Origin: a bacterium
Lineage (GTDB): Bacteria; Patescibacteriota; Patescibacteriia; UBA1558; S5-K13
Direction of reading: 5' to 3'
DNA length: 61,375 nt
NCBI GenBank assembly: GCA_035356975.1
Contig: DAORGW010000002.1
Span: forward strand, 1 to 61,375
Shown: one piece after another, positions 462 to 38,950 of the stretch
How positions within the stretch are numbered: position 1 is the first letter of the stretch
Layout of the letters: each line of letters starts with the position of its first letter
The notes under the pieces: model-generated
Database searches by the model: none
What the model saw: the letters and a program-made list of their open reading frames with translations, nothing else
Told to the model about the DNA's origin: nothing
Program-made: the position numbers and the translations under genes

Positions 462-1391
462 TTAAAATTTTAAATATCTTTTAATCGAAATGAGAGAACT
501 AATTATTGAGAACACACAGGACAAAAGCAATTGTCCAAAAAATATTACAATAAAATTGGAATTAAAATAAGAAACCAGATTAATTGTGTATCCTTCAAAT
601 AATTTATCTACTATTGGTTGTAAAAATGCTCCACCGAGATATACTATTCCTATAATCACAATTAAAGCAACTATATTATAAAATAAAATATTTAATATAA
701 ATGGGGCTTTTATAAAATTTTCTGTCGCTCCAACTAATTTCATAATGCCTATTTCATCTCTATGTGTGTAAATTGCGATTTTTATAGTATTAAAAACCAT
801 CATAAAAGCTATAAGCATAAATACTCCTGATAATATATAAGCAAAAAATCTAATTTTATCCGAAATATTTATTAATCTTTGTGTCATTAATGTATAATCT
901 TGAAATTGATTTTCATCTATTTCAAACAAATCAACATACTGACTTTCTTTGAGTTCGTTTAATATATTCTCATACATTGATATGTCTTTGGCTTTTATTT
1001 TTAAACTTGCAGAAAATACATTTGAATTATCTTTTTTAAGTTCCTCTATTGCACTTAGGAGGTTCTCATCTTGGGCGTGCTTTTGTTTAAAATTTTCCAG
1101 AGATTCCTCCGCCGAAACATAATCAACTGACTTTATATATTGAGATGAGGAAATTTTTTGTTTTAAATCATCAATTTGTTCTTGTGTTATATTTTGTTTA
1201 AAATAAATACTTACATCAACCTTTTCTTTTATTACATGAATTGCGTTATTTGTAAGCAAATTAAAAATTATCAAAAAATTAATTGTTAAAAGCGCTAAAA
1301 CTAAAATAGTAATATTTACTATTGAAAGCCAAATATTTCTTCCAAAATCCTGCGCAGCAAATTTGAATACTCTTCTAAAATTTACAAACAT
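462..1391 (-). CDS. ftsX: cell-division ABC transporter permease FtsX
   Basis: About 300-aa protein with an N-terminal TM, a large loop and 3 C-terminal TMs, directly downstream of ftsE. Confidence 0.85.
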   Translation of the reverse strand: MFVNFRRVFKFAAQDFGRNIWLSIVNITILVLALLTINFLIIFNLLTNNAIHVIKEKVDVSIYFKQNITQEQIDDLKQKISSSQYIKSVDYVSAEESLENFKQKHAQDENLLSAIEELKKDNSNVFSASLKIKAKDISMYENILNELKESQYVDLFEIDENQFQDYTLMTQRLINISDKIRFFAYILSGVFMLIAFMMVFNTIKIAIYTHRDEIGIMKLVGATENFIKAPFILNILFYNIVALIVIIGIVYLGGAFLQPIVDKLFEGYTINLVSYFNSNFIVIFFGQLLLSCVFSIISSLISIKRYLKF

Positions 1392-1469
1392 ATTTTAAAT
1401 TTTGAATTATAAATTTTAAATAAATTAATTATTGAATTTTATAATTTATTCATGATTCAAAACTCTTAA

Positions 1470-16977: not shown

Positions 16978-16994
16978 AACAACAAATATAAATT

Positions 16995-17392
16995 TGCTAA
17001 ATTAGCTATAAGCCGAATTCTGTTTCCTCCAAAAGGAGGCGATGATCATCTATCTTGTCTATTTATCACTAAATAGATCTAGCAACTTACCACTCCCACA
17101 AAATGGGATTTCTTAGTTTTGCACCGAATAGAGTTTACCTCTTCTCTATTGTCGCTAATAGAGCGTCTGAGCTAATTATCTCAGAATTTCACCCTTATCC
17201 CCGACGATATTTCGCGAAGCGAAACGAATCAAGGGAAGGAATTTTTTCTGTTGCACTTGTCCTCTTTTAAAATCACTTTTAAAAGGATTGCCGTTAGCAA
17301 TTATTCCCGAGTTATAAAACTTGGCAAAATGGTGTTCGGACTTTCCTCGATAAACCATAATAGTTTACCGCGATCATCCACTAATCTAGCTT
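16995..17392 (-). ncRNA. rnpB: RNase P RNA (bacterial type A)
   Basis: The reverse complement contains CGAGGAAAGTCCGAACACC (P4 5' strand), AGGGTGAAA, GGTAAACTC...GGTGCAA and ACAGAATTCGGCTTAT (P4 3' strand). The ends pair as P1 (gctagattag / ctaatttagc). The region is visibly more G+C-rich than its flanks. Confidence 0.9.
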
Positions 17393-30316: not shown

Positions 30317-31321
30317 TTATATTAATAATAAATTTTCAAAAATTAATCTTGGATTTACGTTTTCAAAAATAATATTTCTTGACTTATTTGCAAAATCATA
30401 AAATTCCAATAATTTTTCTATCTTATATTTTTCTGAAATAACCTTTATATCTTCTTCTAAAAAGGGGTGGATTAATTCAGTATGCTTATCTGTTTTAAAA
30501 ACACAAAGATCTCTTGCAATTCTCATAAAATCAATAAGGGTTTTTGAGAGTGCGCTATATGAATCCTGAGTTCTTGATTTATCTACAATATTTTCAATCC
30601 ATTTAAATTTTTCATTTATTGAAGATTGCATTATTTCAATTATCTCTCCTAAATCCTTTTTTCTTTTCTCCCATTCTTTTGGATTTTTTAAATATGCCAT
30701 CGCTACTCCAGGCGCTCCACCCGAAAATTTTGATAATTCCTGTGCTAAATTCTTGTCAGCGCCGCCATCAATTAAATAATCATAAATTTCTTTTTGTTTT
30801 ACGCCACCAAAAATAATATTCTGCGATCTGGATTTTATTGTTGGTAAAATTCTATCAGCATCGCAAGCTATTAGAATTATAAAAGAATTTCTTGGTGGCT
30901 CTTCGATAATTTTTAAAAGTGCATTTGATGATTCAGGATTTAACCTATCTGCATCATTTATAATTCCTATTTTAAATTCGGATCTAAGTGGAGTTAAGGA
31001 AAATTTTTCCCTAAAATCTCTTATTTGTTCAATGGAAATATTTTTCTTTCCCTCTTCAAGTGAAACAGAAATTAAATCTGGATGAGTGAAATTTTTTATC
31101 TCTAAACAATCATTACATTTATTACATGGAATATTTTCTTCACTTTTACAAAAAATAGAACTAACAAAATATCTTGCAACTGTTTTTTTACCAACATCTT
31201 CTGCTCCCGAAAAAAGATAAGTATTTAAAAAATTTCTAGTACTTACAATTTTTTGTAGATATTTAATTATATTCGCATGTCCTAATATATTCCAGTTATA
31301 CAAAAATTTATCTTCTTTCAT
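30317..31321 (-). CDS. holB: DNA polymerase III delta-prime subunit
   Basis: AAA+ clamp-loader fold: GAEDVGKKT P-loop, zinc module CNKCNDC, IINDADRL, SRSQ sensor. Confidence 0.8.
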   Translation of the reverse strand: MKEDKFLYNWNILGHANIIKYLQKIVSTRNFLNTYLFSGAEDVGKKTVARYFVSSIFCKSEENIPCNKCNDCLEIKNFTHPDLISVSLEEGKKNISIEQIRDFREKFSLTPLRSEFKIGIINDADRLNPESSNALLKIIEEPPRNSFIILIACDADRILPTIKSRSQNIIFGGVKQKEIYDYLIDGGADKNLAQELSKFSGGAPGVAMAYLKNPKEWEKRKKDLGEIIEIMQSSINEKFKWIENIVDKSRTQDSYSALSKTLIDFMRIARDLCVFKTDKHTELIHPFLEEDIKVISEKYKIEKLLEFYDFANKSRNIIFENVNPRLIFENLLLI

Positions 31322-31388
31322 GTTTTAGAAGCTTTATATTTATATAAGTTAAGAATATCAAATTTTGAAGCTTTATTCAATGTAAATT

Positions 31389-31417
31389 AACCTGCGAGGT
31401 TGCCAACCTGCGAGGTT
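31389..31417. repeat. tandem GC-rich near-palindromic repeat AACCTGCGAGGT x2 (16-nt period)
   Basis: Exact 12-mers at 31389-31400 and 31405-31416. The 29-nt block matches 40819-40847 at 27/29 positions. Confidence 0.9.
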
Positions 31418-31438
31418 GTAGTTATCCACAACTCACTA

Positions 31439-31466
31439 TTGACAAATTCTATGGATATGATATAGT
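31439..31466 (+). promoter_or_regulatory. sigma70-type promoter (TTGACA 31439-44, 16-nt spacer, TATAGT 31461-66) for the candidate large RNA
   Basis: Hexamers read directly; no ORF downstream. Confidence 0.6.
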
Positions 31467-31472
31467 TATTTG

Positions 31473-32472
31473 TTAATCTAAATGTAATTTGACAATTAAA
31501 TAACAGACAAATCCTGAAAAGGGCAGAATTATGCAGAAGATATGCAAGATAAATATTCAAGACAAACAGCTAAAAACTTCATAGAAACAGCTTAAAATAT
31601 ATGAAATTCATCTTCTTCTACATAATTCTGCCCTAAACTTGCTAGCTTTCCTTTCATGAGGAAAAATAAAAACTAGCATGGCTTTTGGAGGACCGATGGA
31701 CTAGCATGTCTGTCGTCAAATCCGGCCCTAAACTGAGTCAAACGGCCGGTACCGGATCGTAGAAAAATTTCTGAGTATAAACGAGGCGGGATTCATTTCT
31801 CTTCTCACATGAAATCCAAATTCCCCTAACCTATTGGAGGAAGGATGATCACCCTGAGACGCCTGCGGCAACAAACTCCAAAAAAACCAAAAGTCATGGA
31901 GGTTGTGGCCAATTCTGGATTTTACTAAGGTAATGCGGGAATTACCCGTTCTTGCCTGTTGCGCTTGCCGAGCGCTTTATAAATAGGCAAACTAGCGGGA
32001 CACGTGGTCGGAAAAACCCAGCACAGCATACCCACACACTACCCATGGGTACTGTAGGGTGAAGCACTGGTTTAAAACCGACTCAGGCAACACGCCACTC
32101 CCGCCCCTGAAAAAAGGCTCCCCACCCAGACAAGGAGCCCACGTGAAAAATCACGTGCAAAAAGTACTGGAAATTGATCTCTTCTCCATTTGCGGGAAAT
32201 TCTACCGCGGAAGATAATCCCGCGCCGGAACACAAGGAGTTGAGATCACCAGTGGTGGAGGCGCTCTTTTTAGCGAAAAGCTAAAAACTGCCTGGTATAA
32301 CATTATGGAGATTAATCTCCGGTTTACTACCTAGCTAAATTGAGCCCCTTCCCCACGGTAAAATATATCCAGCGCCTCCCCGCCTTCAAAAGAGTAAGAG
32401 ATAAACATCGCTCATTGGAGGTGCCGGATCATTTTTTAAACCAACCTAATCCAAGGCTGGTTTTCTTTTTTA
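31473..32472 (+). ncRNA. candidate large (about 1 kb) structured non-coding RNA, class unknown; ends approximate
   Basis: No ORF of 60 aa or more in six frames; G+C far above the flanks; promoter upstream; terminator at 32438-32472; numerous readable helices including 13-bp and 9-bp long-range pairings. Confidence 0.55.
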
Positions 32473-32482
32473 TTTAAAGCCC

Positions 32483-32511
32483 TTGACAAAATTAAAATAA
32501 AAGTTTAATAT
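32483..32511 (+). promoter_or_regulatory. sigma70-type promoter (TTGACA 32483-88, 17-nt spacer, TAATAT 32506-11) for the small RNA
   Basis: Consensus hexamers at optimal spacing, immediately after the upstream terminator. Confidence 0.6.
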
Positions 32512-32518
32512 CTACATT

Positions 32519-32666
32519 AAGGACTGTGCCCGTGGTCCCAGGGCAATTTAGGGACAAATGGATGATTGATTTTAAACATCAAACATCTGGAGCGAAGACT
32601 CAGACGAGATAAAGAGAAAATAGCATACTTGGTAGTAAATACTATTTTCTCTCTCGTCTTTTTTTA
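32519..32666 (+). ncRNA. candidate small RNA (about 150 nt), class unknown
   Basis: Promoter-to-terminator unit without an ORF or a downstream same-strand gene; 17-bp terminator stem (32603-23 / 32642-58) plus T7; 5' domain capable of forming a pseudoknot. Confidence 0.5.
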
Positions 32667-32671
32667 TTTAC

Positions 32672-32693
32672 AAAAAATCAGCATATAGCTGAT
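32672..32693 (-). terminator. intrinsic terminator of rnhA
   Basis: Stem atcagc (32677-82) / gctgat (32688-93) with a minus-strand T-run (A-run 32672-76). Confidence 0.65.
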
Positions 32694-32718
32694 TATAAAT
32701 TTTCTTAAATCTCAAATC

Positions 32719-33111
32719 TTAATCCTCATTAAGCGCCTGATTTACTAACTTATCCGCATAAAAATTTTGTTCACGAATAACGTGGGTAAATGTAATCTTT
32801 TGAAATTCCTGTTTCATATTCCACACACGAACAAAAAGAACCGCCAAATCTTTATCTTTTACTTTAAATTCTCTATTAACTTGCTTTACAACTAATTCAC
32901 TATCCAAAAAACACTCTAATTCTTTTATTTCTAAATCTTTGGCTATTTCTAGACCTTTTATAAGCGCTCGATACTCTGCCTGATTATTTGTAGTTATTCC
33001 AATACATTCATTAAATTGTTTTATAATTTTATTTCCATCATAAATAACTCCACCTATCGCACTAGGCCCTGGATTACCACGAGAACCACCGTCTGTATAT
33101 AACTTATACAT
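32719..33111 (-). CDS. rnhA: ribonuclease HI
   Basis: LYTDGGSRGNPGPSAIGGVI, NNQAEYRALI and DSELVVKQ motifs carrying the DEDD catalytic residues. Confidence 0.9.
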   Translation of the reverse strand: MYKLYTDGGSRGNPGPSAIGGVIYDGNKIIKQFNECIGITTNNQAEYRALIKGLEIAKDLEIKELECFLDSELVVKQVNREFKVKDKDLAVLFVRVWNMKQEFQKITFTHVIREQNFYADKLVNQALNED

Positions 33112-38774: not shown

Positions 38775-38791
38775 ATGAAAAAGGAGGTCTC

Positions 38792-38950
38792 TTAATGAAG
38801 ACCACGGGGTTCTGGTATGAGACCGTCTTCATCTAAAAGATGCAAACGGTTATTAAGCCCCCTTGTATTAGAAAGAGCTTTAATTTCCTCATCCGTGGGT
38901 TCATCTTGTTTCCCAATAGACACTTTGGTTTTCTGTTTTTCCTTTTCCAT
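38792..38950 (-). CDS. small acidic protein (52 aa), not in the ORF track (below its size cut-off)
   Basis: Promoter TTGACA-N17-TAATAT on the minus strand, SD GGGAGG 5 nt before the ATG at 38950, strong terminator after the TAA at 38792. Translation: MEKEKQKTKVSIGKQDEPTDEEIKALSNTRGLNNRLHLLDEDGLIPEPRGLH. Confidence 0.65.
   Translation of the reverse strand: MEKEKQKTKVSIGKQDEPTDEEIKALSNTRGLNNRLHLLDEDGLIPEPRGLH

Follow-up and report, generated by a model that had tools for sequence, protein, structure and literature searches.

Between holB and rnhA, in a 61,375-nucleotide stretch of contig DAORGW010000002.1 that we call the window, lies a 1397-bp island (31322–32718) that is probably a stand-alone gene for a highly structured, non-coding RNA of ~1.0 kb, belonging to an undescribed family in a small, AT-rich, Patescibacteria-like group. 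The broader proposition, that the island is a functional structured RNA gene, is very likely correct. The RNA combines a conserved 5' handle with a modular body, and the body is exchanged by recombination, even between near-identical genomes. A first-pass annotation of the sequence had proposed an ornate structured RNA at this position; searches for a protein match, an Rfam match, homologues and covariation all went the way of its structured-RNA-gene interpretation and support it. Its picture of the molecule itself held in part: the structure is there, but not as a uniformly conserved ornate fold, the leader being constant while the body is mosaic and quickly replaced.

The island and its predicted transcription unit

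Relatives of the locus were contigs encoding HolB homologues, taken at graded identities to the window. Homologous islands were found in the same gene slot of these relatives, as the first-pass annotation would lead one to expect. They comprise seven distinct full-length and two partial alleles in three subclades: in clade A, the window allele (L001, HolB 99–100%), L003 (85%), L004 and L005 (83%, the protein identical in both), L007 (75%) and the partial L009 (69%); in clade B, the full-length L025 and the partial L013 (52–53%); and in clade C, L062 (51%). Every allele has an ORF-free (open reading frame), G+C-rich island of 0.9–1.3 kb, reaching 0.55–0.60 G+C, upstream of holB, and rnhA lies on the far side wherever the contig extends enough (L001, L003, L004, L005). 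The neighbours at the examined loci are recJ, rnhA, holB, a gene for a BNR-repeat protein, and frr. Named HolB relatives come from metagenome-assembled genomes of Patescibacteria/Parcubacteria, at ~35–38% identity. One record, L022/L004 (CAYLQO010000001.1), is labelled 'uncultured Gammaproteobacteria bacterium', probably wrongly, because its gene content, its 27–30% G+C and its HolB relatives are Patescibacteria-like.

Composition sets the island apart from its surroundings. G+C content at ~31600–32400 is 0.42–0.52, compared with 0.23–0.30 in the flanks (genome background ~27%), which bears out the contrast first seen by eye, and the island is the top G+C peak of the window, exceeding even rnpB. 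The longest ORF in six frames encodes 57 aa, in line with the earlier statement that none reaches 60 aa. A Pfam search with nine ORFs of the window island and a 180-aa ORF called in L003 gave no match; the latter, rich in Cys, Gly, Arg and Trp and assignable to no family, was judged spurious. Of the 22 indels that separate the window from L003, only 2 are multiples of three in length. A protein-coding gene or pseudogene was rejected on these grounds: no Pfam signal, no ORF beyond 57 aa and indels that are not triplet-sized.

The candidate promoter (Table 1) scores 11/12 with an extended −10 and is the best of the region. Same-sense promoters scoring 11/12 with the TG element are present in the window, L003, L004, L007 and L025, L062 reads TTGACA, N16, TGcTATACT, and the promoter blocks are invariant in the clade-A alignment. 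Some 1 kb further on, the intrinsic terminator reported by the first-pass annotation is present in the sequence: its window stem forms 8 of 9 pairs, with one A.C, and escaped the terminator scanner, which did call the orthologous L003 hairpin. Between these two stems a C-G pair has become U-A by compensatory change, and a hairpin with a T-run closes the island on the plus strand in every allele. The orientation of promoter and terminator is thus kept in all alleles. On the opposite strand rnhA has a terminator of its own, which shields the island from read-through. Because of the promoter, the terminator and the separate rnhA terminator, we place the RNA at ~31473–32471 on the plus strand, with a predicted start near 31473 and a length of ~1.0 kb.

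Table 1. Coordinates of the elements discussed, in window positions unless another contig or allele is named
Feature	Position	Strand	Description
tRNA-Thr(CGU)	2621–2696	−	known RNA gene
RNase P RNA class A (rnpB)	16993–17389	−	known RNA gene, 192.5 bits
holB	30317–31321	−	Pfam DNA_pol3_delta2
DnaA box	31422–31430	+	perfect, TTATCCACA; 8 nt upstream of −35
Sigma-70 promoter	31439–31466	+	TTGACA, N16, TG-n-TATAGT (extended −10); −35 31439–44, TG 31458–59, −10 31461–66
boxA-like element	31483–31497	+	UGUAAUUUGACAAUU; 5' leader
Leader hairpin	31520–31634	+	20–21-bp stem 31520–40/31614–34 closing a 73-nt A+U-rich irregular hairpin
P2 hairpin	31641–31677	+	GCUAG...CUAGC around UUUCC/GGAAA; covarying
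Shine-Dalgarno-like GGAGG and mini-ORF	31687–31704	+	GGAGG 31687–91; ATG GAC TAG 31696–31704; by sequence reading
M0 helix	31783–31808	+	UAAAC-GAGG ... UCUC-AC; in all six clade-A alleles
Module M1	32006–32083	+	three stacked helices: GGUCGG/CCGACU; AACC-AG/CUGGUU; variable distal hairpin; in window, L003, L062
Hairpin GGCUCC/GGAGCC	32116–32139	+	loop CCACCCAGACAA
Module B	32189–32226	+	UUUGCGGGAAAUUCUACCGCGGAAGAUAAUCCCGCGCC; three mutually complementary G+C strands, palindrome CCGCGG; in window, L003, L004
Module C	32234–32349	+	GAAAA-loop hairpin 32267–87, CUGGUA/UACCUAG, GGAGA/UCUCC 32307–20, conserved CCUAGCUAAAUUGAGCCC; with H_f in window, L003, L007
3' closing helix H_f	32369–79 with 32417–27	+	CCAGCGCCUCC with GGAGGUGCCGG; also written CCGGCACCUCC/GGAGGUGCCGG
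Module A			in L003, L005, L007
Module D			in L004, L005
Intrinsic terminator of the large RNA	32438–32471	+	stem 32438–46/32455–63, then UUUUCUUUUUU
Small transcription unit	32483–32668	+	between large-RNA terminator and rnhA; promoter TTGACA, N17, TAATAT (10/12)
rnhA terminator	32676–32694	−	directly after rnhA stop; orthologous hairpin and T-run in L003
rnhA	32719–33111	−	Pfam RNase_H/RVT_3
MKHGPPNS... frame, L004	371–475		island, RNA-sense positions
MKHGPPNS... frame, L005	371–484		island, RNA-sense positions
MKHGPPNS... frame, L009	364–462		island, RNA-sense positions
Membrane-protein gene, L014	4288–4836	−	in the island's slot

The RNA matches no family that we searched, as the first-pass annotation had anticipated. 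Rfam 15, whose models cover OLE, GOLLD, ROOL, raiA, HEARO, group I/II introns, tmRNA, RNase P, 6S, SRP, rRNA and riboswitches among others, returned at the gathering score only rnpB and one tRNA from the whole window; at E up to 10, the region 31250–32800 gave sub-threshold chance matches only (for example microRNA models on the long hairpin) and neither small- nor large-subunit rRNA, and at E up to 0.5 six related loci gave nothing. Transfer-messenger RNA was rejected after ARAGORN found only tRNA-Thr in the whole window, and a CRISPR or tandem array for want of any repeat family or periodicity in the island. A Csr/Rsm- or Crc-type sponge was likewise rejected: measured against dinucleotide shuffles, no 4–6-mer is consistently enriched across six alleles, the best being AAAA (mean z ~2). 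A retron or diversity-generating retroelement (DGR) RNA finds no reverse-transcriptase gene at any locus examined. As for a replication origin, cumulative GC skew is monotonic through the locus, and the DnaA box at 31422–30, one of only two perfect ones in the window, stands outside any cluster. An antisense or guide RNA against local genes, phages or plasmids was rejected too: the island has no similarity in phage and plasmid collections, and its complementarity to other parts of the window stays at chance level. In IMG/VR, four conserved modules were not found, and all 36 matches to a leader-hairpin pattern were chance hits with neither the outer stem nor the jump in G+C. Leader-motif scans of metagenome and genome collections recovered only the known alleles and four chance 19-mer matches; on these sequences the family is restricted to a narrow clade of AT-rich, Patescibacteria-like bacteria. 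A full-text literature search found no description of such an RNA, and no large structured RNA of this sort from Patescibacteria/CPR (candidate phyla radiation).

A constant leader and a mosaic body

The best-conserved part of the RNA is its first ~160 nt. Over the stretch that starts at the promoter and runs through the first hairpin, alleles are more alike at the nucleotide level than in the neighbouring holB gene (94% vs 76% between L004 and L009). The DnaA box is invariant in all clade-A alleles, and in clade B (L011, L012/L013, L024, L025) it is inverted, TGTGGATAA, at the same place. An element at ~+12 to +28, present in all clades as UUUGACAAUU, UUUAACAAUUUA, AUUAACAAUU or GUUGAAAAAU, has what we take to be a resemblance to the rrn boxA consensus and is a putative antitermination site of the NusB/S10 type.

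The leader hairpin that follows carries the strongest evidence for selection on pairing. Its local z is −5.4; in the alignment of 7 sequences, pairing is kept in 97% of cells, and between clades both partners have changed in 6 of 20 pairs. The covariation score was reached by 0 of 500 shuffles, and slid controls gave 0–1 double-change pairs. L062 has the same hairpin architecture. The helix that the first-pass annotation read at 31521–33/31621–33, with its extension, is therefore not only present in the window, at 20–21 bp, but conserved and covarying in relatives. The inner stem arms, UGYAGAAGA and UCUUCUACA, are invariant; because they never vary, they point to sequence-specific recognition on top of pairing.

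The body that follows is structured in every lineage, whatever its sequence. Folding of the whole unit is well below shuffled energies on both strands (z −9.7 plus, −9.2 minus). Six leader-free bodies, several of them without detectable shared sequence, gave z of −5.8, −9.0, −6.0, −4.1, −8.7 and −10.9, compared with +0.3 and −1.6 for equal-length holB and recJ mRNA pieces as controls. Predicted unpaired body positions are 41–51% A and 7–9% G. Between the window and L003, scored on minimum-free-energy (MFE) pairs, 11.6% of paired positions have changed vs 18.5% of unpaired ones. Compensatory changes and excess stability, the generic marks of a structured RNA, were both found; the blind MFE test was neutral.

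Several helices, four of those listed by the first-pass annotation among them, keep their pairing through compensatory or wobble changes. P2, GCUAG/CUAGC in the window and L003, has become ACUGGU/ACCAGU in L004 and L009 and CUGGU/GCCAG, with a U.G, in L005. M0 holds a constant GAG.../...CUC-AC base beneath a covarying distal part (GAGACA/UGUCUC, GAGAGUGGG/CCCACUCUC, GAGGAGA/UCUUCUC). Module M1 occurs in the window, in L003 and even in the distant L062, with 23 nt of unbroken identity among them, and has conserved internal loops (CAYAGCA / AAGCA) below a distal hairpin that has been wholly replaced while its base still pairs; a model of it, R1, matches only these three and none of L004, L005, L007 and L025. 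The hairpin at 32116–39 becomes GGCCC/GGGCC in L004, one pair lost from both arms around an identical 12-nt loop. Module B is near-identical in its three carriers and absent from L005 and L007. In module C, the window and L007 are 82% identical, vs 68% in the leader flank, and GGAGA/UCUCC has become GAGG/CCUC in L007; in the RNA sense, two U-A pairs have turned into U.G. H_f is a perfect 11 bp in L003 and a perfect 10 bp in L007, one pair having been lost on both strands; in the window it has 9 Watson-Crick pairs, 1 G.U and 1 A.C.

All helices first listed exist in the window, with differing fates among relatives. The GAAAA-loop hairpin at 32267–87, ggaga/tctcc at 32307–20 and ggctcc/ggagcc at 32116–39 are conserved or covarying. 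The nested helices at 31952–90 are conserved but do not covary, and cacgtga/tcacgtg (32140–57) is present but specific to the window. The pairing ggattcat/atgaaatcc (31789–31817), also present, is not the conserved one, because M0 overlaps it and the two cannot nest. That of 32257–65 with 32371–79 is perfect only in the window and competes with the better conserved H_f; the two share one arm and are therefore alternatives.

The modules are distributed across lineages as a mosaic (Table 1). L004 and L005 are 98–99% identical over 11 kb and have an identical holB, yet their island cores, 680 nt vs 490 nt, are unalignable; identity fades just past the leader and returns abruptly in a common 3' module. 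L004 and L009, by contrast, have islands 87% identical over 856 nt and holB genes 76% identical. The clade-B bodies of L013 and L025 have no detectable similarity to each other or to clade A beyond the leader. The L007 allele is 99.9–100% identical across four independent records, and the variation is therefore allelic and recombinational rather than a matter of hypermutation. Ten contigs from seven lineages (L006, L008, L010–L013, L024, L063–L065) end in the island or ~120–220 nt upstream of holB, and the L009 contig ends within the body; such breaks are expected if several alleles co-exist per sample.

Two further features of the locus bear on its turnover. GCACATACATWTGKCGGTTT, absent from the window, lies at or within ~25 nt of the contig end in three lineages (L008 1–20, L010 3–22, L011 27–46, L025 2–21 on the minus strand), directly after the DnaA box at the expected promoter place in L008, L010 and L011 and after the island terminator in L025; it resembles one end of a multi-copy insertion sequence (IS), or of a similar element, inserted at the locus. 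In L014/L015 (HolB 51%) the slot holds a gene for a 182-aa multi-pass membrane protein, with its own TTGACA promoter and terminator, and no island. L014 also has a gene of the bAvd/23S_rRNA_IVP family, a DGR accessory type, upstream of recJ (1022–1405, plus strand).

Downstream of the large RNA, the small transcription unit of Table 1 may encode a ~150-nt RNA with a long terminator hairpin (32602–32660) and T-run (fold z −3.4); it has no Rfam match. Its promoter and ~45-nt 5' segment are shared with L004/L005; the unit as a whole is missing from L003 and replaced in L007. The conserved UUUACUACCUAG of module C (32323–32334) is complementary in 11 of 12 positions to 32628–32639, the loop of this terminator hairpin, which could be a kissing interaction or chance. 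On the holB side, two tandem 13-bp palindromes, AACCTGCGAGGTT, lie 16 bp apart at 31389–31418 around the TTGGCA −35-like sequence of a putative holB promoter. Equivalents stand at the same place in L025 (CACCTCAGAGGTG twice, degenerate in L024) and in L062 (CACCCGCCGGGTG / CACCCGACGGGTG), and none occurs in L003, L004, L007 or L009; these pairs look like a co-varying operator or two small hairpins. L007 has, after the 3' helix (locus ~250–370), AAGGAGG, a 6-codon ORF (ATG AAT AAA AAA ATT GAT TAA) and a strong hairpin with a T-run, an arrangement reminiscent of a leader peptide, with no counterpart in the window. Elsewhere in the window, a small ORF of ~52 codons (38790–38950, minus strand) with a GGGAGGAAAG Shine-Dalgarno sits in a 516-bp inter-ORF gap.

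Possible roles and competing explanations

In the mechanism we propose, the leader would serve as the constant functional handle. Through boxA-type antitermination, its boxA-like element and hairpin would let RNA polymerase read on past Rho and internal terminators, the transcript being long, untranslated and C-rich, with terminator-like hairpins, and so presumably a good Rho substrate. Alternatively or additionally, the 20-bp stem with its invariant arms may be a recognition site for RNase III or another protein. The DnaA box beside the −35 would link expression to DnaA or replication status in most lineages. The body might act in trans as a modular, flexible scaffold or hub, each hairpin with a conserved loop docking a protein or RNA partner; a docking scaffold would keep its helices and a handful of loops even as its modules change rapidly in order, number and sequence, and that turnover is possibly under diversifying selection. 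We put this combination of roles for leader, timing and body forward tentatively, as one possibility. More speculative is a cassette-type class of long non-coding RNA, with a constant promoter-leader-handle (DnaA-linked in most lineages) and modules shuffled among co-existing strains. If true, such a cassette RNA would correspond, at the RNA level, to a hypervariable surface or defence locus, and may mediate the presumed episymbiont's interactions with phages, hosts or kin.

A number of observations weigh against the structured-RNA-gene interpretation or its details. The strand, ends and abundance of the RNA are read from consensus motifs. Folding energy does not separate the strands, the two whole-unit z values being close and the consensus energies uninformative, and the terminator stems of the window and L004/L005 have an A.C mismatch in the proposed sense. 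On the blind MFE pairs, structure-preserving substitutions are not in excess over structure-breaking ones, with G.U about as frequent as A.C. Beyond the leader, nothing in the body is common to all alleles. The sample is seven full-length and two partial alleles of one narrow clade, too few to give covariation much statistical strength except in the leader hairpin. In principle, an assembly chimera with its crossover in the conserved leader could account for the difference between L004 and L005. L062 has no DnaA box. The boxA match alone is not significant, such an A+T-rich 10-mer being expected ~2 times per 61 kb by chance in a genome of 27% G+C.

Among the alternatives, the transcript might be a precursor cut by RNase III, RNase E or RNase P/Z into several small RNAs, the strain-specific set of modules forming a repertoire. 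The body does resemble a string of largely independent hairpins with A-rich linkers, and modules are gained, lost and exchanged singly. A long perfect stem is, moreover, the classical RNase III-type substrate, and the 20-bp perfect leader stem fits that description. The long-range H_f and the nested M1 suggest larger domains instead, no processing signal or spacing recurs along the body, and complementarity to the rest of the window is not above chance. We consider this explanation unlikely.

Translation offers a different account, in which the RNA is an mRNA or dual-function RNA whose product is a very short post-leader peptide and whose G+C-rich remainder is a regulatory or stabilising 3' region. 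Two observations here also count against a purely non-coding RNA. In 8 of 9 alleles, a Shine-Dalgarno sequence and a start codon lie ~20–90 nt past the leader hairpin, opening predicted ORFs of 2–37 codons (ATG GAC TAG in the window, TTG GAC TAG in L003, ATG GGC TAG in L062, MDPPYKKDRPKKRR in L007, MIKMPPPP in L025). L004, L005 and L009 share a frame, MKHGPPNS..., of 32–37 codons with an AAGGAG Shine-Dalgarno, in which three indels are in-frame (3, 3 and 9 nt). Yet the ORF is down to two codons in three alleles and absent in L013, substitutions show no third-position excess (6/4/7), there is no Pfam signal, and the Pro-Pro codons complement the Shine-Dalgarno-like GGAG and are explicable as a helix arm. 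A peptide of 2–37 aa would also leave 800 nt of maintained G+C and structure unexplained. All told, a coding function is distinctly improbable.

An origin as foreign or mobile DNA now decaying at an insertion hot spot, the remains of an integrated G+C-richer element with incidental hairpins and no function as RNA, would account for a composition strongly atypical for the genome, for alleles that differ between near-identical genomes, for the IS-end-like repeat at the locus in four contigs and for the related lineage with a membrane-protein gene in the slot. What it fails to explain is why high G+C and excess structure persist in every lineage despite full sequence turnover, against a 27% G+C background, and why selection, purifying or compensatory, acts clearly on the promoter, the leader hairpin and the terminator. 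No allele has an open frame or protein similarity on either strand, and phage, plasmid and viral collections hold nothing similar. We regard this origin as highly unlikely.

Two further readings are very improbable. A cis-acting, DnaA-controlled R-loop or primer, like ColE1 RNA II or an origin, processed by the adjacent RNase HI, is suggested by the perfect conserved DnaA box abutting the promoter and by the replication-gene neighbours rnhA, holB and recJ; against it, the box is single and lacking in L062, GC skew is unbroken through the locus, the recJ-rnhA-holB synteny also occurs without the island, and the RNA is rich in C, not G, a bias that makes stable R-loops less likely. A minus-strand function, as a structured spacer in the recJ-rnhA-holB transcript (for processing or insulation, say), is no more credible: that strand folds about equally well, with lower consensus energies, is G+U-richer and improves two terminator stems (G.U in place of A.C), but rnhA is separately terminated on it, the 11/12 promoter, like every end-of-island terminator, reads on the plus strand, and U rather than A would predominate among unpaired positions. 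Wobble changes in the curated conserved helices also favour plus (~11 wobble pairs vs 3 A.C mismatches), a count biased in that direction because the helices were chosen by hand.

Significance and likeness to known systems

Only about a dozen large structured bacterial RNA classes of unknown function are known, and the island RNA is probably a new one. Patescibacteria genomes are tiny, and 1 kb behind a near-consensus promoter is therefore a sizeable investment. To our knowledge, a constant, covarying 5' handle joined to a structured, G+C-rich body that is exchanged between strains has no precedent among bacterial non-coding RNAs. If confirmed, it would offer a tractable case for the evolution of modular RNAs, an RNA that may take part in episymbiont biology or defence, and a natural set of conserved-loop hairpin modules for structural work; RNAs of this kind would escape conservation-based searches.

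Among known systems, ColE1 RNA II is likewise structured, several hundred nt long and close to replication functions, with an RNase H nearby; the island RNA differs from it in being C-rich, chromosomal and syntenic with housekeeping genes, and in lacking an origin signature. CsrB/RsmZ, with their GGA loops, and CrcZ, with its CA motifs, are multi-hairpin RNAs with their own promoter and terminator, and the sponge-like side of the island RNA extends to A-rich single-stranded regions and many elements of GGAG/CCUCC type. It is without their defining repeated binding motif, because no short motif is enriched beyond dinucleotide expectation.

The leader invites comparison with those of rrn operons and CRISPR arrays. 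As in these, a strong promoter leads, within ~30 nt, to a boxA-like element (in the island UUUGACAAUU/UUUAACAAUUUA) and a long perfect stem; the RNA downstream is again long, structured and untranslated, and without them would be open to Rho. In the island, no rRNA or repeat array follows, and the stem closes on itself rather than around the body; the boxA identity is by resemblance alone. In its mode of evolution the RNA recalls yeast TLC1, similarly ~1 kb long and fast-evolving, in which short conserved elements sit on replaceable arms that tolerate gain, loss and relocation. The island RNA is bacterial, with no reverse transcriptase or dedicated protein gene nearby and no template element identified, and the analogy implies neither homology nor a common function.

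With OLE, GOLLD, ROOL, raiA and HEARO, the likeness is one of kind only. These too are protein-free, multi-helix RNAs of several hundred nt to ~1 kb, encoded in G+C-rich, ORF-free islands of AT-rich genomes with their own promoter and terminator, in a context that does not reveal function. The island RNA matches none of their covariance models, and it evolves differently: where they conserve a core fold across many genera, it keeps a constant leader within a single clade and replaces the body from strain to strain.

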